Assembly: GCA_016281055.1 (NCBI GenBank)
Contig: JAEEHW010000085.1
Location: forward strand, 15,203-79,202
Reading direction: 5' to 3'
DNA: 64,000 nucleotides
DNA from: Prevotella sp.
GTDB taxonomy: Bacteria > Bacteroidota > Bacteroidia > Bacteroidales > Bacteroidaceae
Positions within the stretch are counted from its first letter, which is position 1. The number at the start of each line of letters is the position of its first letter. A program made the translations under genes and the position numbers. Below, piece after piece: positions 11,798 through 49,734 of this stretch. The notes under the pieces are model-generated. The model worked only from the letters and a program-made list of their open reading frames with translations. It was not told where the DNA came from and did not search any database.

Positions 11798-13030
11798 ATG
11801 ATGAGGATACTGCTTTTCCTTCTTGTATTTCTGATGCAGAGTGCTTCCTCAAAAGCCATCACCTATGAATATAGGGATGGGTTGGGGTTGATTCCATCTT
11901 GGGTGAGATGGGATATGTGCGTCGGGTATCGCGAGGATGCGAATCGTAGCAGTCGTATGATCTTGTATATGTATCAGGTTGATACGGGGAACACGGCGTT
12001 CGGCACGTTCAGCGGCGGTGGCAAGGTAATGTATGATGACCATAATTATTTTGTTTATGGTCCCATTGACAAAGCCCACGATAGGAAAGACCGCACGGCG
12101 TTGGCGGTTTCATACACGGGTCAGATGCAGATGGCTAATGCCAATCCTGACCATATATATAAGTATGACTATATGGTGGCGAAAGATACAGTGACTGCCT
12201 CGCTGGGTGACTTTACTTTGAAACACCTTGGAAGCGTGTTGAGAGTTGAGTTGCCGATGCAGAGGGATATGCGCGTCACGAGGATGGTGATGAAAACATC
12301 TGGTGACCGTTTCGCAACAAACGCCACGGTGTGCGTTGATGAAGAAACTATAACGCCAACAGCGTTTTGTGACAGCATGGAGCTGAAGATGGACAGCCTG
12401 GTGATAGGGAAGGGCGACGCACTGGTGGCATACCTGATGCTCCCTGCAACAGATTTCACGGATGATACCCTGGTAATCAAGGTTGCATCAGATGATGGGA
12501 CGATAACTTCAGCAAGAGTAAAAGGCTGCAAAGTGTCTGCAGGACTTCTATATAATATAAAGGTAGGAGAAGAAGGAGAAGAAATTGAGGGTTCGGAAAA
12601 CTCAAAAGAAACTAAAAACTCAGATCTCTCAGATAACTCAGATAACTCCGAAAATTCAGAGTCCTCCGATAATTCCGAGTATTCAGAGAACTCCGAGCAT
12701 TCTGAAAACTCCGATTACTCCCCCTTGCAGGCAAAACCCGCGGAGGCTAACCTCGACGCAGATGGTAATGAAACCTCTCCGACAGGCCTGCTGACGCCTT
12801 TGCCAATGGCAACACCGGACGATGGACAGTTCCTAACGCTGAATACCCTCATAGGAGATGTCAATGGTGACGGTGAGGTAACGATGAGTGATGCCAACAT
12901 GGTAGTAAATATCTTCCTTGGAGGAAATGTTGCAGGAGCTGACATCAACGCTGCCGATATCAATGGAGATGGAGAGATAACAATGGCTGATGCCAATGGA
13001 ATAGTAAACTTGTTCCTTAATGGACAATAG
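11798..13030 (+). CDS. secreted pilin-like (fimbrillin-family-like) protein with an NSE/NSD repeat linker and a C-terminal type I dockerin
   Basis: Signal peptide MMRILLFLLVFLMQSASS without a lipobox Cys. The body shares its layout with the two downstream lipoproteins (YDYMVAKD..FTLKHLGSVLRVEL..LVAYLMLPATDF..AGLLYNIKV). The linker is GSENSKETKNSDLSDNSDNSENSESSDNSEYSENSEHSENSDYS. The dockerin is described in the next entries. Confidence 0.7.
   Translation: MMRILLFLLVFLMQSASSKAITYEYRDGLGLIPSWVRWDMCVGYREDANRSSRMILYMYQVDTGNTAFGTFSGGGKVMYDDHNYFVYGPIDKAHDRKDRTALAVSYTGQMQMANANPDHIYKYDYMVAKDTVTASLGDFTLKHLGSVLRVELPMQRDMRVTRMVMKTSGDRFATNATVCVDEETITPTAFCDSMELKMDSLVIGKGDALVAYLMLPATDFTDDTLVIKVASDDGTITSARVKGCKVSAGLLYNIKVGEEGEEIEGSENSKETKNSDLSDNSDNSENSESSDNSEYSENSEHSENSDYSPLQAKPAEANLDADGNETSPTGLLTPLPMATPDDGQFLTLNTLIGDVNGDGEVTMSDANMVVNIFLGGNVAGADINAADINGDGEITMADANGIVNLFLNGQ
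12590..12724 (+). repeat. coding 9-bp repeat (x-Ser-Glu/Asp tripeptide units), the same unit as the intergenic satellite at 9582-9718
   Basis: aac tca gat | aac tcc gaa | aat tca gag | tcc tcc gat | aat tcc gag | tat tca gag | aac tcc gag | cat tct gaa | aac tcc gat | tac tcc. Confidence 0.85.
12854..13027 (+). other. dockerin type I module (two EF-hand-like Ca-binding segments)
   Basis: GDVNGDGEVTMSDANMVVNIFLG - gnvagadina - ADINGDGEITMADANGIVNLFLN. Both segments match the D-x-N-x-D-G-x-[IV]-x-x-x-D dockerin loop plus helix. Confidence 0.8.
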
Positions 13031-13121
13031 AGATATAGAATAGTAAAACAATATAGAAAATAATACTGTAAGCAATACAGAAATTAATTCGAACTATAAA
13101 CCTGACGCGAAATATTAAGTT

Positions 13122-14378
13122 ATGAAGAATATACTGACATTTTCAATCATTGCATTTCTTGCGGCGCTGACATCTTGTTCATCAGAGGATATCCTCGGTG
13201 ACGTACAGGTGACAGAGCCGAAGGAGGGTACTGAGGCTGCCATCCCCGATGTTGTATCTGGCGATGCCTCACGAAGCGAATTGTACTATGACAATGGTAG
13301 CATGAGCTTCATGTGGAATGCTGGTGACGGTATTGCTATCTATCCTAAGTTCGTTGATGCTGATAAGCAGGGATTCTTTGGTGCAGAGTTAAGTCCGCGA
13401 ACAGACTATCTGTATGTGTTGGAAACGGCTCATGCAGAAACTAACCCTGCACTTAAGGGTTATGTGACAGGTAAGTTCGGTGAGACAGATGATGAGTCTT
13501 CAAGGTTGACGATAGCGGGAACGACTGAGTTCTATGCTTGGAGTCCGAATACCAGTACCCGTCAGTCTATAGCAACACCTGAATATGGATACTTGGAAAT
13601 GCCGGTTGATTTTACAGGTCAGAGGCAGGCAAGCAATGTTGCCATATCTTATTATCAAGAGGACAATGCTGCTTATACTGCATCGGAGAAGGCGGCATCG
13701 GGTCACCTTGGTGACTATGATTTCATGTACTCTTTGGCAGAGCAGGATCCTACCAACTTATATACCTATTTTGAGTTTAAGCATGTGCAGGGATTCGTGC
13801 GCTTCTATATGAAAGTGCCAGATCCGGATGTAGAGCAGGTGTTCGACTCTCTGTTGCTTTTCCGTAAGAACGAGGGTTTGGAACAATATAAGTTCACTAC
13901 AAAGGGAACATTTGATATGGAGGCAGAGGTCCTGACTCCTACCGAGCAGCCCTCAATGCTTAAGTTGCTCCTTGGCACCAACGGCTTCGACCTCATCGAC
14001 CATGACAGCGAAAGCCCACGCTATGGCAAGACATCCAATCTGTATCTGCGCAAGGGCAACTATATTATGATATGCTATATGGCAGTAGCACCGGTAGATC
14101 TTATGCTTGATGCCCATCCAAAACCGATTCTTTATCTCTGTAGCCATACAGGCACAGGAGATAATATGATAAAGAAATACTATAAGGCCACACTTGCAAA
14201 GAAGAAGATTGAGGCTGGAAAACTTTATCAGTGGTCTTCTGCCCTCGATGAGGAAGAACCTATCACATTCGAGGAAATTGAAGTAGAGGAATGGAAAGAA
14301 GAGGTTGGTTACACCAACACTGTTACCGACAGCACCTCTGGTGAGGATAAAGAAGGTCACGGTACGGAAAACTGGTAA
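13122..14378 (+). CDS. fimbrillin-family-like lipoprotein (type V pilin-like)
   Basis: Lipobox FLAALTSC|SSED. The body pattern DYDFMYSLAEQ..FEFKHVQGFVRFYMKV...MICYMAVAPVDL...IEAGKLYQW is typical of Bacteroidota fimbrillin/Mfa-like proteins as I recall them. Confidence 0.55.
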   Translation: MKNILTFSIIAFLAALTSCSSEDILGDVQVTEPKEGTEAAIPDVVSGDASRSELYYDNGSMSFMWNAGDGIAIYPKFVDADKQGFFGAELSPRTDYLYVLETAHAETNPALKGYVTGKFGETDDESSRLTIAGTTEFYAWSPNTSTRQSIATPEYGYLEMPVDFTGQRQASNVAISYYQEDNAAYTASEKAASGHLGDYDFMYSLAEQDPTNLYTYFEFKHVQGFVRFYMKVPDPDVEQVFDSLLLFRKNEGLEQYKFTTKGTFDMEAEVLTPTEQPSMLKLLLGTNGFDLIDHDSESPRYGKTSNLYLRKGNYIMICYMAVAPVDLMLDAHPKPILYLCSHTGTGDNMIKKYYKATLAKKKIEAGKLYQWSSALDEEEPITFEEIEVEEWKEEVGYTNTVTDSTSGEDKEGHGTENW

Positions 14379-14432
14379 TGATTTAATTCATAATGCATAA
14401 TTCATAGTTTCGGAATTTAACTGACTATTTTC

Positions 14433-15641
14433 ATGATAAAGACTAAACACATACTTATGGTGAGTGTCGCCGCCCTCATGACGGCATGTTCCAGCGACGA
14501 ACTGGCGCTGACACTTCCCGACGGTTACGATGAGATAAATTTCACCGTAGGCAATGGTACCGCTAACCTTACTCGTACAGAGGGTTACCTGCCGTATGAC
14601 TATGACCGTGACCCGCACAGCATGAGTGTATTCGGATGGTACAACCTGAGTGCGGAAAATATGGTGAAGCCAGCCAACACGATGTTCAACAATGTTGAGG
14701 TTACGGCAGGACGTGATGATGAGAGTGGTCTTGTGTCTTGGACATACGTCAACAAGAAATATTGGTTTGACTATGCTGCTTATTCGTCATTCGATTTCTT
14801 TGGTTGCATGCCTTACGATGCATCTGCATCTCTTGTATCAGGAGCAGCGGTTGGTAATGCCCAGAGCTATGAACTCTCCATGGATGTTGAGTTTGCAGAA
14901 GGTGCAGCGTTCTCACCTGTTGAAACTGCGCTTATGTGTGCTCTGCCAGAGCATAAGAGGTCTGCAGAGGGTGTCATTCCGTTCAAGATGGATCAGACGC
15001 TCACAGGTTACACTCTCGTGTTCCAGCTTGGTGAGCAGATGGATGCCTTGCGTGATTTCATTGTCAAGGAGGTAAAGGTATATGGTAACTCTTTGGCACA
15101 TAGTGGCCATGTGTCTCGCACCTATACCTATGATGGTGACGAAGGAGTATGGAGTGCCGGAAATATCACATGGACTGTAACTCAAGATGACTATACCGAT
15201 ATCCCAAGCACCACCGATGTGGTTATACCATATAAGAATAATTCAAATGATGTGGCAGACCTCGTGCCGTATTATACCGATCCTGTAGCGGAAGTTGGTA
15301 ATACACCGGCAAAGCCAGGCACCATGCGTGTTACCAACGTGCCTGTACAGTGGGGCAATGCCATATATGTGATACCTGTGGCAGGATTCAATCCTACATT
15401 CCAGGTGAAGTATGACGTTGTAGTGCAGGATGAGGAAGGTCATGACATCATTACACGTCATGATGTTGTCAGCACCATACAGTTCAACCCTGACTTCTTC
15501 AAGCGTCTTACCAAGAATGCAGAGGAGAGTCCTGTAAAGATGGGTTACACAAGACCAATCAACATAAAGATTGTGCCTGATCACCTCTACGTCCTCGCCG
15601 ATGCCGACCAGACATTCGGTTACATGCCAGTGTCAGACTGA
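14433..15641 (+). CDS. fimbrillin-family-like lipoprotein (type V pilin-like)
   Basis: Lipobox AALMTAC|SSDE followed by EINFTVGNGTANLTRTEG, a typical fimbrillin start. Later comes IPFKMDQTLTGYTLVFQLG...VKEVKVYGN. Confidence 0.55.
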   Translation: MIKTKHILMVSVAALMTACSSDELALTLPDGYDEINFTVGNGTANLTRTEGYLPYDYDRDPHSMSVFGWYNLSAENMVKPANTMFNNVEVTAGRDDESGLVSWTYVNKKYWFDYAAYSSFDFFGCMPYDASASLVSGAAVGNAQSYELSMDVEFAEGAAFSPVETALMCALPEHKRSAEGVIPFKMDQTLTGYTLVFQLGEQMDALRDFIVKEVKVYGNSLAHSGHVSRTYTYDGDEGVWSAGNITWTVTQDDYTDIPSTTDVVIPYKNNSNDVADLVPYYTDPVAEVGNTPAKPGTMRVTNVPVQWGNAIYVIPVAGFNPTFQVKYDVVVQDEEGHDIITRHDVVSTIQFNPDFFKRLTKNAEESPVKMGYTRPINIKIVPDHLYVLADADQTFGYMPVSD

Positions 15642-25200: not shown

Positions 25201-27544
25201 TGTGGTATCAGGACGTTACATGAATCTGACATACTGGAATCTCAATCCGAATGAATCATACACGCTGACTATTCCTGCTAATACGCTTGAAGATATATAT
25301 GGTGAGAAGAACGCAAGTGAAATCAGTGTATCTTTCACCACCGGTTCTTCTTCAAGTTCCGTTGACAAGCAGATGTTCAACTTTGTGGTAACTCACAAGC
25401 AGAATTGGGATTCAAGAACTCAGGTTACACGTGATTCCATACAGGTTGTAAGTGATGAGGTGATTTCTAACCTTGAGAATCTCAACATCAAATATGGTAC
25501 ACTCGAGTATGGTATTAAGTTGGCGAACTCAACAGAAGGTTCTGATCGTTTCTACATCTTCGTACCTAATGGAGAGTACAATATGAAGGGCTCGTCAAGA
25601 TTGACCGCCGGTGAGTTGGGTAAGACTGCATACGGTAAGGATGAAGACGGTAATTACAGCAGCTCTGTGATGATTGATATTTCACAATACGAGAATGGTG
25701 AGTATTACGCCGGACGTTCTGTGATTACTCGTAGCAATGTATCTATCATCGGACAGAGTCAGGATGGCACTGTGATTTACAATGATCCACAGGTATGTGG
25801 TTCTACAAACTCTACAGATAAACCAGTGTTCTTGTCTTCTACAGTAAGAATAGACTCTGATGTAGAGAATACCTACTTCCAGGATCTGACTATTGAGAAC
25901 CGTTTCTGTGACTCTCAGAGTGGCAGTCCGACAGCGAATATTGTAAATGGTGGTGGTGCACCTGCATTCTACGACAATGGTATGCATACAATCTGTAAGA
26001 ACGTGACGATGAAGGCCCATGAAGGAACTTACAGTTCACGTGCTTGGGAAGGTAACGGCATCGCACATGCAAAGGTTGTCCACAAGACTGACAACTACTA
26101 TGAGGACTGTGCAGTATGGGGCACACACTGGTTCATACATGATCAGGGTCAGGCATGGTTCGAGCGTCCTACTATTGTGCTGCGCTATCGTACCAATTCT
26201 GCAACAATTGCAGCGACAGAACATTTTGCAGACTCTCATCCATGGGGCTACGTGCTTCATAACGGTAAGGTGAAAGCTGAGAACTCAGCAGCAAAGAACC
26301 AGCAGGAAAACAAGTTCTGTCTTGCTTCACCGATGCGTCAGGCTCCTACGGTCAACTTCATTAACATGAAATTTGACGTAACACCTAACGCAGTGGGCTA
26401 TTCAGCTTACAATACTGGTGCAACAATCCGATTCCATGAGTATGGTTCGAAGAACAGCACAGGCAATGACCTTGACCTCACACGTCGTTCATTGAGTGCT
26501 CTGTCACCAGCACCTGGTTCAGAGGATTGCATCCTCTCTTCAGAAGAGGCAGCGGAATACACTCTGCGCAATGCTCTCGGAGGTGACAATGCTTATGATC
26601 CTACCATCTACACCAAGCCGATATCTATGGCAGGCTGTAACTTGAGAAACACCACTACAGACCTTGGTGACTGCGTGATGAGATGGAACTCTGTAGAAGG
26701 TGCTCTCTGCTACTTCGTATTCCGTGTTGACAAGGCAACAGGTGATACTCTGTTCTATACCATAGCTTCGGATGCATCGTTCAAGCCATCAGAGAGACAG
26801 AATGGAAGCTACTTCATCATTCGCGCTGCCAATGAGCGTGGTGGTCTTGGTGAGCCTTCAAATGCGGTAATGTATAAGTTGCTCGACAGCTATCAGGTGA
26901 CCGTCAAGGAGGTAGGTCCTGTTACAGGTAAAGGCTGGAGCACGGTATGTCTGCCAGTGAATGCAACATTTAGTGAGTCTGACGATATCACGGTATATGC
27001 AGCTATCACAGCCAATAACACTACGTTGGGTCTGAAGAAGATTACACCTGCTGATGGTTTGGCGAAGGGTTATGGTTATGTGATATACGCAAAGGCTCCT
27101 GCTACCTATACCTTCAAGGGTACTCACAACGATCCTCGTCCAGTACAGGATGGAGTATTCTCAATCCTTGGTGGTAATCCGGAAGATCACGCTGTCAGCG
27201 TAGGCACGCTCAATCTCTATACCTTGGCATACAAGTCAGAGATAAGCAGCCAGATAGGCTTCTATAAGTTCGTTGGCAGCCAGATACCGGCACGTAAGGC
27301 ATACCTCTCTGTTGATGACCTTAAGGCTAAGGGCTTCTCTGTTCAGGATCTTGGTTCAAAGGGCATGGGCATGATATTCATTGACGATGAAGAATTTGAT
27401 GAGGATGTCACCGACGTACAGGGCGTGAAGGAAGACAACGATGACAGTGATGCCATCTTCGATCTGTCCGGTAAGCAGGTTGACGGTTCACAGATGCGTG
27501 AAGGCCAAATCTACATCATCAATGGTGAAAAGAGAATGAAGTAA
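16235..27544 (+). CDS. giant modular secreted surface protein, paralog 1 (3769 aa), with a degenerate CE8-like module and a T9SS-CTD-like tail
   Basis: ORF track. The hydrophobic signal RRLWTSVVLMILMMVVSGSAFAG follows a ~37-aa extension. There are four Ig-like modules (ETYQWY..AYYYCMVGNSAGN, LTYQWY..SYYYFCVVYNS, RYQWY..EYYYMTVTNDHG, LTYQWF..KFYYCLISNS). InlB-B-repeat-like modules are present (LYKEGYTLTGWTDGTTA..VTLYPVF). A CHB_HEX_C-like module (ETIYYTTDGTKPT) and an SbsA/Big_5-like module (ITLVFDHAM..YTLTIPANTLEDIYG) follow. Confidence 0.9.
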   Translation: MKKNLYFTNFKTAVAACKERGHDGLNGFPGSSAETIRRLWTSVVLMILMMVVSGSAFAGVHFSQNYEAAGAVPDWTTSVSGRFTPIIVEEDGNHYLTVDQDQRVNNGCILSSSSLIGKVPADVNELTMTFDLRLAPSNDQTPNEFTIADGGTGFVLKLVNKGVNSTIWQINDSTTQTVTMDVDKWYSYNIEILEGCVFVTVTDKSSGNVVLARQKVKNIIEKFGLGNMSFVTKRNNANIAIDNVKVSSKAVVKQWDFTKFSEKNLTLDTDNKIQSGNVARWNGTNFNRDLYLCTDTEAEGLYLDGDGPWQILSNSTGLYLSKKGDRPFAITGLSKDDVILIKLYDQAITSGVIPKIWGVNNSELLLLNSGSIYALIVASDGNVAVNLEKYSAVKSISVLREDKPVFVDFSNGENTGVAGTLPEGMEVQKGLSFLVPVNTSMYKSGYTLAGWDNGTDTIACGGESSALVATTYVSVFKQNEVVRTDSKNPVSASFTDVKWTEPGTQDYYVTQTAFNGETQDVGAMVDGKTITLLDIIPGTKITFPAGTVGDYSATDVTVAENTWTYNGSATSLEITYSGSAASTSLIVTFPLTQKPVIRTDIRDVYAANLNAELPITVGAIQAETYQWYTNSVCSTEGGTIISGANSSTYNAPTTTKGNAYYYCMVGNSAGNVISNVARVRVDDYVSFDFTAMSEDDMNYTTDSIKGYSGVVQTMKDSIEWDCMPIISPYHMTGYFGVMTTEVSLQTGKGFSNNNVRGDRTLIMYGLKQGDVVVIKGKSLTGGQIVQNEKNADYGRASVDSLVNANGTDVEILVTMKTDGDLAYLLRRQNIQEIHSVMMPNKYRPTVTTDLDGETHTLARGETQTLTVAATAGDSNALTYQWYRSDANTIKGGLDVNSFGSQAIEGATSASYTTEANQSYYYFCVVYNSVTGAAAVTPHNTRIQCKPQVTYECTDPDVTGVLPPTEIVEIGGQHTVEQHNQLLHKEGYTLTEWTAEKLTDDSVWTYNFGESYYIVNDTKITPVFTKNEQTLKNIIKNVEQQWQFGTTNGAPAVAWTDSEEHPFVEQCVVSGETQDGAIFVTSTGFDNSTAAGEYVAVAAGTTIKIPVKYGTTVTLYAKEGETPSATFMARDLNRAVALTGDANVLTYQYYGGDSIATLTLSAGNYEKLHLKHIPSGMPVIQANLLDDYYAETGKEYTLTVDASDLCRYQWYKNTTKSNTGGTPITGATTKSLTVSRNTDGSEYYYMTVTNDHGTVATNCAQVNFQTYVTYDFTAWDWTDVETSYFAKEDYTMIRLPGGAIIQAFNYPYGLRGMIGCYAATLVPNEGKGGLYNGGGGGRELAIPHMKKGQHLTITGDVDCFKECAFLYKGLHNKNNHMAEEAGDTIPGAATYTYEKKDDNTRVEIDVLTDGAVVFYFNPRYHTIYTIRRPSINTPVIKKNLDKEYVVEKNEEVTLTVQAELSAPIVGDSLTYQWFENTTNSNKGGTKIEGATDPSYTIAKVNANKFYYCLISNSATDATVATIPAAVGFYVTVKYVNNDVVATGECPKDQRVQGGLSIVMPVNQTLYKEGYTLTGWTDGTTATNIGEEYTPANDVTLYPVFVENNADAALTARPEAMTTRWVFSTVNGSAEYNNNVSANVNQETINNYTIDLGVTMTKGDNQQHAEYNASGWMAANGADFTIPVVRNTKIYVDVYSTATGITINGNALAYSAANGQTGNVEYVYTYTGAAGTITLNVGNNYIKQIIAEYPAPEILKADHAEYDVTITSDKVSRKSAVITLTGRNLVAGQEVSVEKVSNGSDITVSPETFTVASDGTVNQQILVTYSQTTVQADGVATLRFFYSNDVKPEVKVNYGRTVAFAGNTTVTAVTDKTVWDWSLADNDIVPVQDSYMSFSDVTLGENVEWPAGVNAANLAGSGRYFSHNTVKSFEGTELYFETTRKGTVEVEFSAAGNGNVSLAVNGENTTYSSSGTTKVVTGKIQVPAGGVLLQGREQGINSGEKMMRVYKITFIPDAETPIITLDKSTSSFTLSTTDMSLPDDDPDKETIYYTTDGTKPTRESYVYNGTPVSLATNVTIHAIAMAKAKNNSDMAELVTDMTTYKLNVNLYPSDEEGRIEISPVSEDGTYTENATVTVRGYAKSGYGLLGWTTSRANIGTQTYCGTGSSMEVTINSTANDYWAVFSTGPQGTVNYDFTGAVFYTVSGENMIDYQARLDYEDDPSKTLEEYRAEWAETLADAYEQIEGYDTFKSPITSTSISVPSNYPLHTMDGLDGGTFTLQYWQDAEENRYDLGTNTLFKPNQTSVTLYPVFKQNEDTNFMEARNSGFNVTWDFRKAYGAHPMTLPSGVSGRYYSTHATMDYYARGSLQKDKTVDLAIKINTEGVEQTDDAFTNEDLDEWATLKQGTKVTIPSSYGAKIIVATYAKMNADDGGTMINGKHPDNIHDENVPKTSDGAYLYTWTMGSDDQEVDLVIGNDYSYYKYINAVFKDAEKVYLKYYTNNDEDGTVTAKLDENEDYVAELTNLGYAYPKGSNVTLTATRNIYHRLLYWLDDKGAKIYPDGTYELANGNTGTISSGKVINGITYKGVTNETDMKYTVSFEMNKFYELQAVFGDMTTYYVNFSVGDGDGLALPLQHIEHGRQLIMPACNYNLYRDGYTLKYYVESGHEDGQHYEFGRSYNIDRDMRLKPVFEKNTKSIDDISDVNGVTATWDMSKMDFDFSNARGHIVAQLPIDENNTIDMRCYVEAKNASYFAYTNEGIGEFSQGAFLKVTTTKNSTVSVVAATGMPFEAKQIKIGGNETAAGATVSYGDNENEVNVTRDSTKIEFAKDSRISSFSVTFRKVSSDLALKSVTIGGVALSAEELLALKNTLNHSYSCEASTVYAADGVMPEVTATANEEGGETAVTQATVENNTAVVLLKKGGVTIQTYNINFTLTGKTAPVVDTLKVNGIVAENGSVSTAQGVNGVITLVFDHAMKTKDVESGADALNQTLDCVVSGRYMNLTYWNLNPNESYTLTIPANTLEDIYGEKNASEISVSFTTGSSSSSVDKQMFNFVVTHKQNWDSRTQVTRDSIQVVSDEVISNLENLNIKYGTLEYGIKLANSTEGSDRFYIFVPNGEYNMKGSSRLTAGELGKTAYGKDEDGNYSSSVMIDISQYENGEYYAGRSVITRSNVSIIGQSQDGTVIYNDPQVCGSTNSTDKPVFLSSTVRIDSDVENTYFQDLTIENRFCDSQSGSPTANIVNGGGAPAFYDNGMHTICKNVTMKAHEGTYSSRAWEGNGIAHAKVVHKTDNYYEDCAVWGTHWFIHDQGQAWFERPTIVLRYRTNSATIAATEHFADSHPWGYVLHNGKVKAENSAAKNQQENKFCLASPMRQAPTVNFINMKFDVTPNAVGYSAYNTGATIRFHEYGSKNSTGNDLDLTRRSLSALSPAPGSEDCILSSEEAAEYTLRNALGGDNAYDPTIYTKPISMAGCNLRNTTTDLGDCVMRWNSVEGALCYFVFRVDKATGDTLFYTIASDASFKPSERQNGSYFIIRAANERGGLGEPSNAVMYKLLDSYQVTVKEVGPVTGKGWSTVCLPVNATFSESDDITVYAAITANNTTLGLKKITPADGLAKGYGYVIYAKAPATYTFKGTHNDPRPVQDGVFSILGGNPEDHAVSVGTLNLYTLAYKSEISSQIGFYKFVGSQIPARKAYLSVDDLKAKGFSVQDLGSKGMGMIFIDDEEFDEDVTDVQGVKEDNDDSDAIFDLSGKQVDGSQMREGQIYIINGEKRMK
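25370..26600 (+). other. CE8 pectinesterase-like beta-helix module of paralog 1 with all catalytic motifs substituted (predicted inactive)
   Basis: Colinear with paralogs 2 and 3. Where those have QAVAV, YQDTY, GTVDF and LGRPW, this module has GGAPAF, AHEGTY (26018-26029), GTHWF (26120-26134) and LASPM. Confidence 0.6.
27404..27541 (+). other. T9SS C-terminal sorting domain-like tail (paralog 1)
   Basis: DVTDVQGVKEDNDDSDAIFDLSGKQVDGSQMREGQIYIINGEKRMK. It matches the terminal pattern iYDLsGr.V......G.YI.NGkK of type A Por secretion tails, but it is short. Confidence 0.5.
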
Positions 27545-27591: not shown

Positions 27592-27637
27592 AAAAGCATT
27601 CATATTACGGTGTAAAATCTGTAATATGAATGCTTTT
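27592..27637 (+). terminator. hairpin terminator after paralog 1
   Basis: Perfect 17-bp stem aaaagcattcatattac / gtaatatgaatgctttt with a 12-nt loop, followed by gttatagcccttttt. The stem sequence is related to the GTAAAAGCATAG..TATTAC units of the 95-bp element. Confidence 0.7.
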
Positions 27638-27655
27638 GTTATAGCCCTTTTTGGG

Positions 27656-27798: not shown

Positions 27799-27806
27799 TA
27801 CCTTTG
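27799..27806 (+). promoter_or_regulatory. Bacteroidota -7 box TACCTTTG for paralog 2
   Basis: Read in attattacctttgcaga, 35 nt upstream of ATG 27842. Confidence 0.45.
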
Positions 27807-33800: not shown

Positions 33801-36800
33801 ACAGGTTCTATGAACTGGATTACTGGCTCGATGGAAATGGCAACAAGATATATCCAGACAATCACTGGGTAGATGCTGATAATCAGAGTCACAACACAGA
33901 GTTGAGTTCTCCATTCTCTATTGATAACATTACATACACTCGTGTAGATCAGGATACCATTAAGTTCCAGTTAGGCCAGAACCTCGATCTTCAGGCTGTA
34001 TTCAAGGATAAGAAGTCTTATTACATTGACTTCTCTGCAGGTGGACAGGCAGAGGGACTGCCGCCACTCCAGCAGCACGTAGAGGAGGGCGAGGCATTCA
34101 CTATGCCGCTCCACAACAACCGCCTCTATCTTGAGGGATACACTCTTGTTGACTATACAGATGCTTCAGGCAACCATTATAAGTTTGCCAACAGCTATGT
34201 GCCGACGAGCGACCTGCATCTCACACCAAACTTCAAGCGTAACAATCGCTCATTGGGTGATGTGACGGAAGCAACCACGTTGACGTGGCCGCTCACTACT
34301 GCGGGTAATGCGCCAGACCTGTATTACAACAAGTCGCAAGGCTTGACCGTCAATCAGCTGAAGTTTGTTGGCGACAGCATTGATGTGCCACTCTATATTG
34401 ACGGCAGTGCAGGTGCACTCAGTAACCAGGACAACTCTGCTTACTGCGTAATCAGTGCCGGTTGTGTGCTCACCATGCCGACATCAAAGAACTGTGTAAT
34501 CAATATCAATTCAATAAATGGAGTATTCCAGAATACAGTGATAGCTGGTGCAACGAGCCTGCGCAATACAGCATACAGTTTGGCATACGGTGCTACTGCA
34601 TCGCCGATGGTGACATACACCGGCGAGGCTGCATCACAGGATATCTTGATGAAGGAGTCACGTCGTTGCACAGATGTCAGTGTTACCTATATGCCTATCG
34701 ACAGACCAGAGTTGTCGAAGGTTACATACGGAAGCACAGATCTGACAGCAGTACAGTTGGCTACACTGAAGTCTGTCGGCGAGATAGGCGGCATCAGTTG
34801 TGCAGCATCATACGATGCAGAGACACTGACCACTGTTAGTGCCACTGTAACCAATGGCAGTGTAGAGATTGCGCAGCCAACAGCCGCTAACCCTGTGGCA
34901 CAGATTACGCTGAAGACCGCAGGCGGTGTTGTGGCAGATGTATATACCATCTCATTCGTTGTAACCGACAAGACGGCTCCTACTGCACAGTCGGCAACAG
35001 TGTCAGGCAACGCTGCGTCGCTCAATGGTTCTACAACCGTCAGCGGGGTAGGGGAGAACGGTGTCATTGCTATCACCTTCGACCATTACATGAACGATGT
35101 CACCCTTGCAAGCACGACAGGCTTGGGGCAGGCACTTGTGGGTAAGGCCGATGGTAAGACATTGAAATTTACATACTGGAACCTCATAGCAGGCCAGACA
35201 TATACGCTTACCATTCCTGCACAGACATTGAGCGATACATACGGCACATCGGTAGCTGGCAGTATCGTGGTGAAATTCACACCGGAGGAAAAGAGTAATC
35301 CGCAGCCAAAACTGTTTGACTTCGTTGTCACTCACAAGCGTAGTTGGGATTGTGAGACACAGACAGAAGGAGAACTTGTGCAGACTGTCAGCAATGATGT
35401 CATTGCCAACCTTGATAAACTGAACATAAGGTATGGCACCATCGACGAGGCTACGGAGGCTGCCAATGCCGCTTCTGGCTCAGAGCGTTTCTATATCTTC
35501 GTACCTGACGGAGAATATTGCATGAAGGGTAACAGCAAGGGCGTGCTCACAGGAACATACAACGATACCAAACTCGGAAACAACCAGGGTCTGGTGGTCG
35601 AGAACTACTATAACGGCCGTACGTTCATCAACCGTGACAATGTCTCTATTATCGGACAGAGCCAGAATCGTACGGTGTTGTACAATGAGCCATACATATA
35701 CGGTATAAGCTATACGTCAACCCTTGAGGTACGCAGTAAGAAGAAAGACTGCTACTTCCAGGACTTTACTGTGGACAACCGTTTCTCAAAGTACCAAGTT
35801 GACCGTGGCGATGCAAACCCGACAGGCCAGGCTGTTGCCGTATATGACCGAGGCATACACTCCGTATGGAAGAACGTCAGCATGAAGGGTTATCAGGATA
35901 CCTACGCTTCTGCAGCCAACTCCAGTGGCTTCAATGTGGACAAGGGACAGGTAACACCAAACTGTTTCCATACCTACCGTTACTATGAGGATTGTCAGGT
36001 ATGGGGTACAGTTGACTTCCTCTGCGGTGGTGGCGACGACTGGTGGGAGCGTCCTACCTTCGTACTCCGCAAGCGTGCTACGGCAAACAATATTGTGGCT
36101 CCACGCCATTTCCATCCAAGCGTTACACAGTATTGCACAGGTGCAGACTATCTCTTCACAGAGAAATGGGGCTATGTGTTCAATAATGCCAAGGTGAAGG
36201 CAGAGAGCGAGGCCGCTTACAATGTGCAGAACGGTAAGTTCACACTTGGACGTCCGTGGGCATACTCTCCAACATGCACATTCCTCAACACCGACTTCAG
36301 TGTCAAGCCTGCCGATGTAGGATGGAGTAACATGTCTGGTACGCTTGTGATACGTATGCATGAATACAGCTCAACGCTCAATGGTCTGCAGATGGATCTC
36401 ACCAAGCGTACGCTGCGTGCATCAACACCAGCCGCTGGTTCTGATGACTGCATACTCACGGCAGAACAGGCAGCACAGTACACTATGCACAACGTGCTCG
36501 GTGGCGACGATGCTTACGATCCTACCATATACACCAAGCAGATATCTATGGAGGATGCTATCGTCAAGAACAGCACCAACGACAACGGTGACTGTACCAT
36601 AACATGGAATCCGGTTGATGATGCACTCTGTTATTTCATCTTCCGTATTGACGAGGCAACGGGTGATACATTGTTATACACTCTCTCCACAGGCGCTTCG
36701 TTCAAACCTGCAGATAATCAGGCAGGCAAACGCTTTGTGATACGTGCTGCCAATGAGCGTGGAGGACTGGGTGCACCGTCGCGTGCAATCGTGTATATGC

Positions 36801-37590: not shown

Positions 37591-37619
37591 AATAGTACGT
37601 TGTGAATTTTCGAGATTTA

Positions 37620-37663
37620 ATCCTATTAGAAGTAATGTGACAAAGTGTTATTTCTAATGGGAT
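37620..37663 (+). terminator. hairpin plus T-run, a likely terminator downstream of paralog 2
   Basis: atcctattagaagtaa - tgtgacaaagtg - ttatttctaatgggat (14 of 16 pairs), followed by tttattgcttttt. Confidence 0.5.
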
Positions 37664-37743
37664 TTTATTGCTTTTTATAGTTAAATATTTTTAAAATATC
37701 CAAATATTCTTGTGCTTTCTTCTTCTTTTTAGCATATTTTATC

Positions 37744-37751
37744 TAATTTTG
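37744..37751 (+). promoter_or_regulatory. Bacteroidota -7 box TAATTTTG for paralog 3
   Basis: Read in atctaattttgctat, 44 nt upstream of ATG 37796. Confidence 0.45.
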
Positions 37752-46700: not shown

Positions 46701-49216
46701 GTGTCAAGGTGTCTGGCAAGAACGCCACTGCCGATGGCTCGACAACCGTCAGTGGGGCAGGGGTGAACGGTGTTGTCACCTTCACCTTCAACCACGCTAT
46801 GAGCGGTGTTGTGCTGCCAAGTGATAAGCACGGACTTGCTGTAACAGAAGACGGCGGCAATATCACGGGCGTGGCAACATCCAAGGAGGTATATGGCAGC
46901 AATGTCTATACGCTCAGGTTCACATACTGGGGACTGACTGCCGGCACTCATATCATGACAATTCCGGCAAATACCCTCACCGATGCCTTCGGTACTCCAT
47001 ATCCGACGGATATAACGGTGAAGTTCACCGTAGTGGAAAACAGTGTGTCGGTTAAGCGTAACTTCAACTTCATTGTGACGCACAAACAGTCATGGGATGC
47101 CAAGACGCAGACTGCCGGTGAACGTGTGCAGACCGTTCCTAATGACGTCCTTGCAAACCTCGATGCGTTGGACATCAAGTATGGCACCATCGAGGAGGCC
47201 ATCAATGCCGCCAATGCAGCAACAGGTACCGACCGCTATTACATCTTCGTTCCTGACGGAGAGTATCAGACGAAGGGTACCGACAATGATGCCCTCACAA
47301 CCAATTACGGTCCTGGTCAGAAATACTATGACACCAAGGACGGTGAGGGATTCGAGGCTTACGGCTACTACAACGGTCGCACGTTCCTTACCCGCGACAA
47401 TGTCTCCATCATCGGACAGAGCCGCGACGGTACGGTGATATTCAATGACCCGTATCTGTATGGCATATCATACTCTTCTACTATGGAGGTGCGCAATAAG
47501 GTCAAGGACAGTTACTTCCAGGATCTGACCTTCGACAACCGCTACTCTAACTTCCAAGTGGAACGTGGTGATCCTAACCCAACGGGAGCAGCTGTCGCTG
47601 TATATGACCGAGGCATACACTCCGTATGGAAGAATGTGGCAATGAAGGGTTATCAGGATACATACGTGGCAGGTTCCAGCACAAGCGGAAGCACCACGCA
47701 GCCTGGTACGTTCCACACTTATCGCTATTATGAGGACTGCCAGATCTGGGGTACTGTCGATTTCATCTGCGGTTCAGGTGACTCATGGTGGGAGCGTCCG
47801 GAAATAATGCTCCGCAAGCGCGTTACGAGCAACAACATCGTGGCGGCACGCAACTTCTACACCAATATGTCACGCAACTATGAGGGTGATGACTATATGT
47901 TCAGTGAGGACTGGGGCTTCGTATTCAACGAAGGCGTAGTGAAGGCTGAGAGCAGTACAGCGTACAGTGCACAGAATGGTAAGTACACCATTGCACGTAC
48001 ATGGGATAACTCTCCTGCCAACACATTCCTCAAGACACGTTATTACGTTATGCCGACAGCAACGGGATACAGCACGATGAACCAGAACCTGCTCTGCCGC
48101 ATGCATGAGTATGGCTCGCTCAATGCCGACGGAACACCGGCCGACCTCACCAAGCGTACGCTTCGTGCGGCTACACCGGCGGCTGGCTCTGATGACTGCA
48201 TACTTACTGCAGGGCAGGCTGCGCAATATACGTTGCATAACGTGCTTGGTGGCGACGACGCGTTCGATCCGACCATACACACTAAGCAGATATCCATGGA
48301 AAATGCCCTCATCAGAAACAATACCAGCGACAATGGTGACTGTATCATTACATGGAATCAGGTTGAGGATGCCCTCTGCTATTTCATCTTCCGTATTGAT
48401 GAGGCTACCGGCGATACGTTGTTCTTTAGCGTTTCATCGGATGCTTCGTTCAAGCCGGGTGATGCTCAGGCAGGAAGACGCTTCCTTGTTCGTGCCGCCA
48501 ATGAGCGCGGGGGACTGGGTGCTCCGTCTAATATCTTGAAATATGAGTTGCTTGATACCTACACTGTTACTGTCAAGGAGGTTGGTCCAGTATCTGGCAA
48601 GGGTTGGAGTACCGTCTGCCTGCCTGTTGATGCTACGTTCACGGAAAGCAGCGATCTTACGGTATATGCCGCTATTGCTGCAGAGAAGACCACTCTGAAG
48701 TTGAAGAAGGTGACTCCGAATGAAGGATTGAAGGCTGGACGTGGATATATCATCTATGCTACGGCACCTGCCACCTATACCTTTAAGGGTACCCACAGAA
48801 ATGCTATACCAGTATATGGTGGTCAGTATTCAGTACTCGAAGGTAATCCGGAGGATCATGCCGTCAGCGTTGGCACGCTCAATATCTATACGCTTGCATA
48901 CAAGTCAGAGATAAGTAGTGAGGTTGGCTTCTACAAGTTCGTGGGCAGTCAGATTCCGGCATACAAGGCATATCTCTCTACCGACTACCTCGCAAGTCAG
49001 GGCATTCATCTTGATGCCGGCTCCAAGGGCATAAACTTCATCTTCGACGATGAAGACTGGGATGAGGAAACCACTGATGTGCAGGGTGTCAGCGAAGACA
49101 CTGATGAAATGAAAGCAGTATATGACCTCTCAGGCAAACCTGTTGAGCGCTCACAGATGCGCAAGGGCCAGATATACATCATAAATGGTGAGAAGAAACT
49201 CTGGGAAGGTGAGTAA
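37796..49216 (+). CDS. giant modular secreted surface protein, paralog 3 (3806 aa), with a largely intact CE8 pectinesterase-like module and a T9SS-CTD-like tail
   Basis: ORF track. Signal RFVTTLWLVLLMFVMGGVKSWA. Ig-like modules are present (TSYQWY..TYYIYCKATNVVG; VNYQWY..SYYFYCVASNAVG; TSYQWY..KYYYCIAENSKG). There are three Big_2-like modules, InlB-B-repeat-like modules (LYKEGYTLTGWSDGTNTY..VEFTPVF) and a CHB_HEX_C-like module (KMYYTLDGTVPT). Confidence 0.9.
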   Translation: MDKHRNILHLDVRTSRFVTTLWLVLLMFVMGGVKSWATTIFSLSTSQATDQTITYGATIDPIDASNATVSGGSVAVVSLRSPAENTDKYTYNGNFYFGTNSVGFKVTLNTTLSAGDVIEYTATNQLRFTIAGANSGGVVTTASSTSYTVKSTDEICGQSVIYIWRANGAGTSFNNMSITHVEVDHSNDFEAVVNNQTGTLLTSGEQVQGTVLTFGVANDGTRVASNSPSAVGVISGTYHSEHGMTGMTVTTDVLGPVRITVGACTYSTNAITVTNSANDVVATKNPLINCWKNNRSNVTVLYYNGAPTTLTISGMQFCPYIKVEAIAASEIPSTVNVSFAKGDAVGNAPAAKEVGIGSEYTLPENRSLYKEGYTLTGWSDGTNTYAPGDTYTLGDVDVEFTPVFTANTKSLGDRTASVSLTWTFGENSGAPTVSWQNKSDQPLVTQVTVSGETIDVPLWINTETSGSKFANASRGDKWAQVTSGAVLTAPSCKGATIKMEAYSAISTTTINGGVDYESGTVITSTVTGDGETAAVVIGDGQYYSYIKVTLPALLPEFTSNLASTYRVQTSVDRILSVSADYATSYQWYTATAADKTGETAIAGANSASYTFNRATAGTYYIYCKATNVVGTVASRVATITVSDVLPTFDFTDWSNATVTKLKADEAWNTARDATASVDASHYNTDSNNDSVNDKYIMGGAWTDNVAGGTLMANNAVIPETFGLDFGGPLTNNASAIVYDQQVDYTLPLTFNYQGAKYLQPGANKGFLIPNVRVGSTLRFNIEAHDFSSASGINLFLGGADGTNLTNATTANGWLTTTQSTPSIELTSALVGNNDYVDIYVQPTAVMHIYTIEAEMALGVTTKTKTANVGDTYTLTEGRDYFSGTGGGAISFASMNTEIATVDATGKITAVAPGTVKIAVIRAASGNYAEHADTLAFTVDAPVSVTYDKGDAEGALPPTAMNMSYNKGTVITLPAGPNLYLYKEGYTMQGWTDGTADYDFGAEYTVTSDVTIYPKFAANTKTLATRSGTAEVLLDLQRKNGTPTLAIENKAGILVVQSDVDGETIDVKIAYDTRPGKIANGNWDDWCQVNNGTTFQLPSCAGAVLSFETYNATKTTTIDGEAMSTNESQTPSVNITSTANPITVVMGGDLEYMRWIKILLPAKPKFTVNLSGTYRLIQGRSKTLSIETDQVVNYQWYRNTTASNTGGTVIVGATSHEYGFATDAETEPGSYYFYCVASNAVGEIVSGVATVIVESVTKNHTFDFTNWSETSFEALAADNVNWSEKEKVSGSGNDGVGYYNHVAITNAILAADGHEIGETFPLRFTGGAHTLGMINALPSTDIGTYAGEQYLWMFKGNSMVIPNVKMGTDITLGMESHKTSDLRGFTIYYGNAATDEWTSLGDYKTRTYIDTLVSIPDGAGYCDVKLSCVAHTHLYYIDCTYNDFALLKDDQRISLGDEYTITRGVDYETSSNAALTFAISDPTVATVDASGVITTIKSGSTNLTITQAAHDGMPALAHTMTIRVVAPSDLNALKSEITIHEGDTYTLTRRTDYNTSSDAPVTYTSSDEDVISVSADGLITVNSDGDATIVIRQEANELYNAGVTRIIVHGVLATDYPTVVSNIGTEKTIFTYTSAKLDFVTTGATSYQWYTCDDEFMTNPVKIDGETSSYMFARHTSPDDKYYYCIAENSKGRVVSDVCHITSVRKVQWDFVSTSGVKERAEAGYMSSTSKGRLQCDQALEDQEMKLNSKEYVPVTEGLFITRQGNVLIGDSTNASNNRLQMAKGSIRIPGCLKDEIIVVNAEWATKKKGFIIPDTIGTNVRCSEEGMTKDSLIGQAMDYKFVVTADGSVTLNFMEAALHSITIQSAHATMMQTYDVKAVPKNDESNVLKTYVSGGKGWTDSFVRVPYSYWLKDADGKLYTLRGASDAPLEETFSLESDTTFLIKYNTTDVENVVFLSEAEDIDGAKACTNGNSFIRSSMNKAAYCDVNGGLKVTTLPPGSYRIKAVIFDPAKTPASIHTFTIGEQSVSLAATKTNFTEVESEIVNINQPTDLLWMPTDDQEAGIDILCVYDTQMPTAETPTITVDDENHTFTLTTTEETGKMYYTLDGTVPTRNNGILYEGTPVLLTSNCVIRAITIASEKLPSQVAMRPTDFTTYRLTVLAQPKTYGSVSVSPKSLDGSYIAGSELKLTARAKAGYAFVGWSTTKDGEIISTDHIKTVTVAEAGNTYYAHFDKGVAGYVKFDIFNGRMLDVEGDLVAEFSDVADDLAELEEYVHSCRIFPTDFVQTHAINIPTAYTMFMDLGVSDQYSFALQYWLDKDSLDAGKTVRYELGESRMFKEEGQHVTLVPVFKDNGNYNLLSNRKSGCEIMWDFRTGFGAQSLTLKRSATNVYYSTHADIIGTGSYGQTTIDVPVLFRTADAAVNNDDEPVITNENIDTWMTMVEGTEIIIPSGKGAEFTLATYAPINKVGGTTVNGQAPDNIDDEYIPRTEEGGYIYKWTVDDTDLQDTLRIGNDYSYYQYLTAVLPNAEHQYLSVSSANTGMGTVVVEPETILTENGYEYTNGSVVTVKARRNRFYDLSYWEDEDGCRFYTDGHYEDKTGANLGQYDGRRIDDVVYSDPTDSTITVTLGKSLALKAYFVEKQSYYVDFSAGGEAEGLPPYQQHVEWDEKFVMPSRNQQLYLEGYTLDYYTDADGNRYDFGQKYLVTKNILLTPHFRLNAVSVSDLAEPATVTWPLAVSEGATEIAFSKSAGIIVDQLHIGNDFIDMPCRIDGNKGAAVNTTPEEGCQVTSGCLMTIPVTHGCTIALSSASGNLVNTSIAGTSSQNLGRTTGLYNVGTTASVVYDGTATTETVQFRESRECLWLKVTYPVIGTKPQLSTVTVGGLSLSEEQVAELNANGTLTVTSTPDYEENSVSTVAATATNGGTVTVTQATPSVHTASLILKDAGGTLVASYNIDFNFVGVTAPAITSVKVSGKNATADGSTTVSGAGVNGVVTFTFNHAMSGVVLPSDKHGLAVTEDGGNITGVATSKEVYGSNVYTLRFTYWGLTAGTHIMTIPANTLTDAFGTPYPTDITVKFTVVENSVSVKRNFNFIVTHKQSWDAKTQTAGERVQTVPNDVLANLDALDIKYGTIEEAINAANAATGTDRYYIFVPDGEYQTKGTDNDALTTNYGPGQKYYDTKDGEGFEAYGYYNGRTFLTRDNVSIIGQSRDGTVIFNDPYLYGISYSSTMEVRNKVKDSYFQDLTFDNRYSNFQVERGDPNPTGAAVAVYDRGIHSVWKNVAMKGYQDTYVAGSSTSGSTTQPGTFHTYRYYEDCQIWGTVDFICGSGDSWWERPEIMLRKRVTSNNIVAARNFYTNMSRNYEGDDYMFSEDWGFVFNEGVVKAESSTAYSAQNGKYTIARTWDNSPANTFLKTRYYVMPTATGYSTMNQNLLCRMHEYGSLNADGTPADLTKRTLRAATPAAGSDDCILTAGQAAQYTLHNVLGGDDAFDPTIHTKQISMENALIRNNTSDNGDCIITWNQVEDALCYFIFRIDEATGDTLFFSVSSDASFKPGDAQAGRRFLVRAANERGGLGAPSNILKYELLDTYTVTVKEVGPVSGKGWSTVCLPVDATFTESSDLTVYAAIAAEKTTLKLKKVTPNEGLKAGRGYIIYATAPATYTFKGTHRNAIPVYGGQYSVLEGNPEDHAVSVGTLNIYTLAYKSEISSEVGFYKFVGSQIPAYKAYLSTDYLASQGIHLDAGSKGINFIFDDEDWDEETTDVQGVSEDTDEMKAVYDLSGKPVERSQMRKGQIYIINGEKKLWEGE
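47060..48300 (+). other. CE8 pectinesterase-like module, catalytic Asp pair retained, two other motifs altered
   Basis: GAAVAVYDRG (the first Gln is replaced by Ala); MKGYQDTY (about 47651-47662); WGTVDFICGS; YTIARTWDN (GRPW changed to ARTW, with Arg and Trp kept). Confidence 0.65.
49067..49213 (+). other. T9SS C-terminal sorting domain-like tail (paralog 3)
   Basis: ETTDVQGVSEDTDEMKAVYDLSGKPVERSQMRKGQIYIINGEKKLWEGE. Confidence 0.5.
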
Positions 49217-49595: not shown

Positions 49596-49734
49596 TAGTT
49601 TGTTAAGGTATAACTATAACCGTGTCTATGGAAGAGAAATTGCGCCTTGACGCGTAACATATTGAAATATAACTGACTACTATTATATACATAGTATATA
49701 TAAAGGAGAAGATAACAAAAAAAAATTTAAGAAT

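Follow-up and report, generated by a model that had tools for sequence, protein, structure and literature searches.

A CE8-like beta-helix module without the catalytic residues, a candidate pseudoenzyme, in a giant protein of Prevotella

When a protein module retains the fold and the profile of an enzyme family together with none of its catalytic residues, should it be counted as a member of that enzyme class and, if not, what is it kept for? The question is raised by a 64,000-nucleotide stretch of a contig from an uncultured rumen Prevotella sp. (GenBank assembly GCA_016281055.1, contig JAEEHW010000085.1, positions 15,203 to 79,202; hereafter, the window), in which three giant open reading frames (ORFs), denoted P1, P2 and P3, lie in tandem on the plus strand. 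An earlier note on this DNA held that a module of P1 keeps the scaffold of the CE8 family pectin methylesterases (PMEs) and has lost every catalytic motif, which would make it a candidate pseudoenzyme or a binding module. Homology, loss of the catalytic residues, purifying selection and the conservation of a clade across species jointly argue for the designation of the P1 module as a candidate pseudoenzyme. It is a CE8 homolog that, as predicted from its sequence, fails the defining functional features of the family and, accordingly, is not to be filed as a PME.

Homology and catalytic positions of the P1 module

The interval first proposed for the module, 25370-26600, corresponds to P1 residues 3046-3456; its limits are set here to 25376-26617 (Table 1). 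Across this region, P1 is colinear with the corresponding modules of P2 and P3, at 47-50% identity over approximately 410 residues, which is far above chance, and the flanking peptides quoted in the earlier note (YFQDLTIENRF, YYEDCAVWGT, WGYVLHNGKVKAE, RFHEYGS and DCILSSEEAAEYT) are all present. The isolated module matches PF01095 with 43 bits, compared to the curated cut-off of 27 (E 3.2e-11, profile positions 132-296), and phmmer matches it to PemA (2nsp/1qjv) with E 1e-6. When the AlphaFold2 model of the module (predicted local distance difference test score, pLDDT, of 76; predicted template modelling score, pTM, of 0.82) was used as a Foldseek query, all of the top 15 PDB matches were CE8 structures (E 9e-13 for 2nsp, PemA), with target-normalised template modelling (TM) scores of 0.55-0.73; the best matches, with TM scores of 0.66-0.73, are PemA, Pme8A and the carrot PME. 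No match to other enzyme families was found in Pfam, NCBIfam or PDB. Thus, the profile score and the similarity to solved PMEs bear out the claim that the module is a CE8 homolog in which the beta-helix scaffold is preserved.

The family signal depends on how the protein is searched. PF01095 was not reported on the whole 3769-aa P1 (hmmscan, E<=0.01), and the Pfam matches from the scan of the full-length protein are CHB_HEX_C_1, Fn3_assoc and Ig_3; the precomputed Pfam annotation assigns PF01095 to P0030, a protein near-identical to P1. Loss of the CE8 family signal in P1 was considered as a candidate and dropped given the score of the isolated module. In giant repetitive proteins, domains that are present can go unreported by such scans.

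The four-block motif table of the earlier note proved exact for P1, P2 and P3 when read against the sequences (Table 1). In the PemA numbering, Gln153, Gln177, Asp178 (the general acid/base), Asp199 (the nucleophile), Arg267 and Trp269 are replaced in P1 by Gly, Glu, Gly, Trp, Ser and Met, respectively, and the position of Met306 is occupied by Tyr. The Asp178/Asp199/Arg267 triad, which is described as strictly conserved in PMEs (PMC10530356), is absent, with Gly, Trp and Ser found in its place. At the same positions, approximately 138 cluster representatives that do not belong to the clade of modules devoid of catalytic residues (the dead clade, described below) are nearly uniform: Gln177 is conserved in 97%, Asp178 in 97%, Asp199 in 99%, Arg267 in 99% and Trp269 in 97% of them. 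Loss of the first Gln (Gln153) is by itself to be taken as uninformative because this position is variable in intact relatives as well.

MAFFT, phmmer and a canonical profile hidden Markov model (HMM) agree that P1 lacks both Asp residues, the Gln residues, the Arg and the Trp, as the note had stated. The MAFFT family alignments place the lost residues at the same positions of P1, and the phmmer alignment with PemA from PDB pairs GTHWF with GTVDF and LASPM with LGRPW. The canonical HMM, built from approximately 130 canonical relatives, leaving out the dead clade as well as the live clade that is its sister, aligns P1 over nearly its whole length, with 296 bits and high posterior probability, and pairs the consensus residues q, D, D, R and W with E, G, W, S and M of P1. 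The fold search, in which CE8 enzymes make up all of the 15 best matches, is in accord with this placement. For Gln153, the MAFFT mapping is off by 1-2 columns, and the HMMER pairing and the motif tables were used instead. A reference alignment was also searched for catalytic residues elsewhere in P1 and none were found, the blocks pairing in the same way by every route. It is extremely unlikely that the apparent loss is an alignment artefact, with displaced catalytic residues in an active esterase: the pairwise phmmer alignment with PemA does shift the Gln-Asp block, due to an insertion of approximately 18 residues in the subfamily, but no Gln-Asp appears even in that shifted alignment; in the family alignments and under the canonical-only HMM, all blocks are placed with high posterior probability and contain no Asp, Arg or Trp; and the nearby Asp in the P1 sequence FIHD is not conserved across the dead clade. 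The P1 module would, then, be unable to de-esterify pectin via the CE8 mechanism.

The P2 module is presumed, from its fully canonical blocks, to be an active PME. The earlier note described P3 as an intermediate in a graded series from active to dead modules, with an altered Arg/Trp block, and this part of its account does not hold. P3 keeps Gln177-Asp178, the nucleophile Asp and, in its ARTW version of the last block, both Arg and Trp; this version is common to the intact relatives P0037-P0039. The graded series is not supported because P3 is changed only at the first Gln, the position that varies in intact relatives. In most otherwise intact members of the subfamily, the first-Gln position (35825-35842 in P2, 47585-47602 in P3) is occupied by Arg, Val or Ala; either the first Gln is dispensable in this Bacteroidota subfamily, or the oxyanion/substrate environment is altered. 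Among the NCBIfam models, the YbhC-type model 'putative acyl-CoA thioester hydrolase' matches P3.

Phylogeny and selective constraint of the dead modules

A scan of species-representative genomes with the module yielded 33 loci, from which all modules were extracted and their four blocks tabulated. [quoted passage not shown] Six genomic modules are devoid of every catalytic residue, namely, P1 of the window and those of loci L003, L005, L006, L007 and L031, which places the dead state in at least five other Prevotellaceae genomes. These six modules are monophyletic and comprise the dead clade, which is separated by a long stem branch from its sister, a live clade that includes P2, P3 and intact modules from these genomes; the loss is, accordingly, old. 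When 1.84 billion cluster representatives were searched exhaustively with HMMER, 353 relatives were identified and, among the best 150 of these, the dead state is found in six clusters at 50% identity (P0030-P0035; proteins of 1321-3769 aa). A word-indexed protein search with the P1 module returned only 29 matches and missed P1, P2, P3 and all giant relatives. In every locus with a readable downstream module (four loci and the window), the order is dead, then live: the giant ORF that follows carries the live module, approximately 10-12 kb downstream (L003/L004, on one contig; L006; L007; L031; and the window).

Across 11 dead-clade sequences, the replacements at the old active centre follow a recognizable pattern. 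The position of Gln177 is occupied by Glu or Asp in all 11, and Arg directly follows the former Trp269, likewise in all 11; the acidic residue is preceded by His in 9 of the 11, and Gly is near-invariant at the position of Gln153 (8 of the 11, by motif alignments). The position of Asp199 holds Tyr or Trp in most of the sequences and Leu or Cys in two, and that of Arg267 holds Ser, Thr or Ala.

Independent, partial catalytic losses were also observed in other giant members outside the dead clade. P0098 has the blocks GERTTL, GSVNF and LGRPL; in P0108 and P0133, Gln-Asp is changed to Glu-Glu, and the Asp, Arg and Trp are unchanged; QN and LARPL are found in P0091, and SWEDTY and LARPL in locus L030 (865-1806). 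Catalytic loss may be recurrent in the CE8 family of giant proteins.

A metagenome scan for close relatives of P1 found distant copies only (32-34%), and close variants of P1 were obtained from cluster members and the contigs that encode them. For the two closest dead orthologs, those of L006 and L007, which are 86% identical, the nonsynonymous (dN) and synonymous (dS) distances are 0.09 and 0.53, respectively, with the dN/dS ratio of 0.17. Among three P1 variants (window, L040 and L042; 97-98% identical), dN/dS is 0.17-0.28 for the module, with only 4-8 replacements per pair, and 0.27-0.29 for the N-terminal 3047 residues. In deeper genome pairs, dS is saturated (1.6-2.6), and the dN of the dead modules is 0.37-0.50, that is, 1.1-1.9 times the dN of the live modules for the same genome pairs. 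Each of the six genomic copies and every cluster representative has an open frame of approximately 410 codons. There are 121 near-invariant columns across the 11 dead-clade sequences, 92 of which are scaffold residues shared family-wide, and the P1 module is 53-59% identical to its ortholog in Prevotella sp. RGIG1502, at or above the average for the protein. On these substitution patterns, purifying selection maintains the dead module, which is not in decay. That the module is a functionless relic, decaying and carried along because of a need for the remainder of the giant protein, is very unlikely: the dead modules do evolve somewhat faster (the dN ratio given above; pairwise identities of 47-57% compared to 55-69% for live modules), but dN remains near the live level, dN/dS is low and not above that in the rest of the protein, the frames are open everywhere despite the saturated dS, and near-invariant columns are numerous.

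The substitutions among the P1 variants are unevenly distributed along the protein. L040 and L042, population variants from other samples, show 117-178 amino acid differences from the P1 of the window, mostly within the N-terminal 3047 residues, and dS is 0.07-0.12 in that part compared to 0.02-0.05 in the C-terminal cassette. A possible cause of the lower synonymous rate in the cassette is recombination, or gene conversion, between paralogs.

Possible roles of the predicted non-catalytic beta-helix

The fate of the substrate-binding cleft bears directly on the role of the module. With contact residues taken from PMC10530356, 13 of the 17 PemA substrate-contact positions were mapped to the family alignment (the unused positions are Gln153, due to the column shift, and Asn226, Val227 and Thr272, due to gaps). 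In the dead clade, the mean sum-of-pairs score of these 13 columns is 1.05, compared to 2.74 for all columns, and the former value is exceeded in 99.8% of random column sets; for the live sister clade, the corresponding means are 5.41 and 3.60, and only 0.1% of random 13-column sets reach the former (p ~0.001). Among the contact residues that are not catalytic, an aliphatic residue stands in place of Trp269 in the dead clade, the position of Met306 is taken by Tyr, Ile, Arg or Phe, and that of Val198 by His, Arg, Met or Asn. Because the dead clade shows relaxed, and the live clade conserved, contact columns, a structural role is favoured over a lectin that would use the ancestral cleft. Of the two forms of neofunctionalised beta-helix envisaged in the earlier note, the structural module fits these data better, and the lectin-like pectin binder is at odds with the replacement of contact residues and the relaxation of the contact columns. 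We consider it reasonably probable that the P1 module is a pseudoenzyme with a non-catalytic, structural role for its beta-helix near the cell-surface anchor, with live paralogs encoded downstream.

A surface location is suggested by the termini of the giant proteins. The last 45 residues of P1 fit the short C-terminal domain (CTD) pattern, with the Gly of motif B and the G-x-Y-I of motif D, and this pattern is common to P1, P2 and P3; short type IX secretion system (T9SS) CTDs in Prevotella intermedia, 43-55 aa in length, show the same motif B Gly and motif D G-x-Y-I (PMC11969387). A signal-peptide-like hydrophobic N-terminal stretch is recognizable by eye in each of the giant proteins (approximately residues 40-58 in P1). 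Together, these features could indicate a T9SS-dependent surface location of P1, P2 and P3. If P1 is anchored by its C-terminus in this manner, the CE8 cassette would lie near the cell surface, and the approximately 3000 N-terminal residues would project outward. The tail between the module and the putative signal is 64-68% identical among P1, P2 and P3; the AlphaFold2 model of the tail has a pLDDT of approximately 90 for the first 95 residues, and a fold search against PDB returned only generic matches to tandem FN3 (fibronectin type III) domains and no carbohydrate-binding module.

The history of P1 could be reconstructed as follows. The C-terminal cassette would derive from a secreted Prevotella PME that consisted of a Big_5 domain, the CE8 beta-helix, FN3-like sandwiches and a short T9SS-type signal, and that became fused behind a stretch of Ig-like and repeat domains approximately 3000 residues in length; the pairing of Big_5 with PF01095 is also seen in P0004-P0020, which are ordinary 500-670-aa Prevotella pectinesterases. 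The duplication of the giant gene would predate the divergence of several Prevotellaceae species. The upstream copy, that is, the P1 lineage, would then have lost the whole catalytic apparatus of CE8 (the Asp-Asp-Arg triad, the two Gln residues and the Trp), along with the constraint on the old substrate-contact positions, while the helix core and the flanks stayed under purifying selection. The P1 module would persist, most likely, as a rigid beta-helix that lacks catalysis and lies close to the anchor of a giant surface protein, with esterase activity supplied by the intact downstream paralogs, P2 and P3. The homology, the fold, the residue loss and its age, the conserved gene order and the purifying selection are borne out by the sequence data, and from these we infer the absence of activity, the T9SS-dependent surface location, a structural, not a binding, role of the P1 module and cooperation of P1 with P2 and P3.

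Several points weigh against this reconstruction. The old active centre of the dead clade contains clade-specific conserved residues (Gly153, Glu/Asp177, Arg after position 269 and, mostly, Tyr/Trp199), and such conserved replacements could mark a remodelled ligand site. The contact sites were mapped through an alignment with PemA at approximately 20% identity, in which 4 of the 17 listed positions were unusable. Finally, no NCBIfam T9SS sorting-domain model matches the C-terminal 840 residues (E<=0.1), the signal being a motif resemblance.

A lectin-like pectin binder, in which the dead helix would bind homogalacturonan in the ancestral cleft and tether the cell or the neighbouring active enzymes to pectin, is unlikely, although not to be neglected. 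Chi-lectins, which bind chitin, provide the analogy for this reading. The retention of the fold and of a cleft-bearing scaffold, the purifying selection and the aromatic residue at the former nucleophile position in most members of the dead clade are all compatible with binding. So is the invariant Arg at the position of PemA His270, where Butyrivibrio PMEs contact the substrate through an Arg (PMC10530356). The difficulty is that the substrate-binding residues (Trp269, Met306, Val198 and Arg267) are replaced as well, and that the 13 contact columns are among the least conserved in the dead clade, although strongly conserved in the live clade.

Alternatively, the cleft might have been rebuilt as a new ligand-binding or catalytic centre around the acidic residue at position 177, the Arg after position 269 and the aromatic residue at position 199, with a specificity or chemistry other than that of a PME. 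Such a neofunctionalised site would account for the near-fixed Glu/Asp, Arg, Gly and His of the dead clade enumerated above and would be in line with its long stem branch, but neither the His nor the aromatic residue is invariant, constraint on the contact positions around them is relaxed, and other enzyme families remain unmatched in the databases listed above, so that this possibility appears distinctly improbable. Taken broadly, a rebuilt cleft that would make the P1 module a CE8-derived lectin or adhesin, or a new enzyme, on giant T9SS surface proteins of rumen Prevotellaceae is assigned a low probability. If this were the case, P1 would act with the adjacent active methylesterases in the attachment to plant cell walls.

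The giant-gene array and related systems

By BLASTP, P1 is colinear with P2 and P3 across the C-terminal ~1770 aa (42% identity), and P2 with P3 across ~2300 residues. A full-length colinear ortholog of P1, at approximately 50% identity, is encoded in Prevotella sp. RGIG1502, and the exact P1 protein is present on five public contigs, one of which, JAEEGF011916404.1, apparently comes from a metagenome assembly. The N-terminal two-thirds of the giant proteins contain internally repeated blocks of approximately 300 residues (approximately residues 360-1900 in P1, 250-1250 in P2 and 320-1900 in P3), which cross-match among P1, P2 and P3 at 23-38% identity in shuffled order. The N-terminal repeat arrays of the three proteins appear to have undergone independent expansion and rearrangement.

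Between the giant genes, TAnnTTTG motifs are located 36-45 nt upstream of the start codons of P2 and P3, following hairpins with T runs (Table 1). Across the window, TAnnTTTG is no more frequent than expected by chance, which leaves placement as the sole argument, and a Sigma-70 promoter scan was at chance level. The arrangement suggests that P1, P2 and P3 could be separate transcription units.

A fourth giant ORF directly follows P3. It has no Pfam match at E<=1e-3, and was ruled out as a P1 paralog given that BLASTP detects no similarity to P1; it appears to encode a different kind of giant surface protein. Its start is overlapped by a 326-aa ORF on the minus strand (49603-50583), which has no Pfam match and is probably spurious. 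Riboflavin genes and a DUF1846 gene lie upstream of P1, as do the ORFs for a dockerin-containing protein of 410 aa and for two lipoprotein-like proteins. The last three correspond to ORFs of approximately 400 aa at 11798-15638 (plus strand), just upstream of P1, which are not paralogous to each other: the first has a C-terminal Dockerin_1 domain (E 1.4e-11), which seems unusual in Prevotellaceae, and the other two have lipoprotein-like N-termini (…LTSCSS and …MTACSS) and no Pfam match. The order of these three genes recurs on an independent contig (L002).

Table 1. Coordinates of the giant ORFs, CE8-type modules, motif blocks and intergenic elements in the window
Feature	Position	Strand	Description and basis
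P1 giant ORF, 3769 aa	16235-27544	+	ORF list and translation; carries the CE8-like module predicted to be catalytically dead
Big_5 (bacterial Ig-like) domain of P1	25055-25342	+	Pfam PF13205, E 1.4e-8; directly before the CE8-like module
P1 CE8-type right-handed beta-helix module, predicted catalytically dead	25376-26617	+	Residues 3048-3461; PF01095, PemA, AlphaFold2, Foldseek, HMM
First-Gln block of P1	25952-25969	+	GGAPAF; GQAVAV in P2, GAAVAV in P3; former QAVAL block
Gln-Asp block of P1	26012-26032	+	KAHEGTY; GYQDTY in P2 and P3; former YQDT block
Nucleophile-Asp block of P1	26120-26134	+	GTHWF; GTVDF in P2 and P3
Arg/Trp block of P1	26321-26335	+	LASPM; LGRPW in P2, IARTW in P3
LASPMR in P1	26321-26338	+	LASPM block and the Arg invariant in the dead clade, at the PemA His270 position
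Post-module tail of P1	26618-27406	+	Confident FN3-like beta-sandwich, lower-confidence beta-rich region, acidic linker
C-terminal 45 residues of P1, short T9SS-like signal	27407-27541	+	…IFDLSGKQV…GQIYIINGEKRMK; motif resemblance
P1-P2 intergenic hairpin, AT-rich, with T run	27594-27640	+	After the P1 stop codon
P1-P2 intergenic TAnnTTTG, Bacteroidota-type -7 motif	27799-27806	+	36 nt before the P2 ATG
P2 giant paralog, 3208 aa	27842-37468	+	PF01095, E 8.5e-11; fully canonical CE8 module
P2 CE8 module	35315-36538	+	GQAVAV, GYQDTY, GTVDF, LGRPW intact; 8tne E 2.7e-13, 1qjv E 1.6e-11
P2-P3 intergenic hairpin with T run	37619-37664		After the P2 stop
P2-P3 intergenic TAnnTTTG	37744-37751		Before the P3 start
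P3 giant paralog, 3806 aa	37796-49216	+	PF01095, E 2.9e-10; CE8 module with the catalytic triad kept
P3 CE8 module	47063-48286	+	First Gln changed to Ala (GAAVAV); GYQDTY, GTVDF, IARTW
Fourth giant ORF, >4755 aa	49735-64000, continues beyond the window end	+	Directly after P3; Gly-rich YGGG/FGGG repeats

Surveys of PF01095 have been used to estimate pectin de-esterification in the rumen and the methanol supply to methanogens (PMC7807696). The dead clade matches PF01095 yet is predicted to be non-catalytic, and would be mis-scored as PME in such profile counts, as would the scattered CE8 members with partial losses. Dead and live copies side by side in giant surface proteins of several species amount to a natural experiment, and the pair could show what use is made of a beta-helix esterase scaffold after catalysis is gone. 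Paralogs that are pseudoenzymes are well known in general; the literature searched, the coverage of which was incomplete, yielded no description of a pseudoenzyme in CE8, of a giant T9SS pectinesterase of Prevotella or of the present giant proteins.

Among the known systems, the beta-helix wall adhesins of Candida glabrata (PMC8746771) carry a parallel beta-helix that serves structure or adhesion, not catalysis, on a cell-surface protein, an analogy only, without a sequence relationship to P1. The nearest concepts include the inactive GH28 polygalacturonase-like proteins of herbivorous beetles, which, as cited in PMC7500146, occur beside active paralogs and have been proposed to perform non-enzymatic roles. 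As in the case of P1, these are beta-helix pectinase paralogs that lost catalysis and are retained beside active ones; they differ in belonging to GH28, not CE8, and in being small secreted eukaryotic proteins, not a domain of a giant bacterial protein, and the decoy role proposed for the beetle proteins finds no support in the data on P1.

The nearest relatives of the P1 module with solved structures are the CE8 PMEs themselves (PemA of Dickeya, 1QJV/2NSP/2NTB; Pme8A, 8TNE, and PmeC2, 8TMS, of Butyrivibrio; and the carrot enzyme, 1GQ8), with which it shares the right-handed parallel beta-helix, detectable sequence homology and the same order of conserved blocks. The P1 module differs from these enzymes in the absence of the triad (Asp-Asp-Arg), of the two Gln residues and of the cleft Trp and Met, in the relaxation of the contact positions and in its location near the C-terminus of a 3769-aa protein. 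With the ordinary pectinesterases of Prevotella, the P1 cassette shares the accessory domains, namely, Big_5 and FN3-type ones. Finally, YbhC of Escherichia coli (3GRH), an atypical, surface-associated member of CE8 without PME activity, is the structural match of rank 13 of the P1 module model in the Foldseek search. Both YbhC and the P1 module represent a CE8 fold associated with the bacterial surface that is not, or is not predicted to be, a PME. However, YbhC keeps the catalytic Asp, Asp and Arg in an altered cleft, whereas P1 has lost the catalytic residues altogether.

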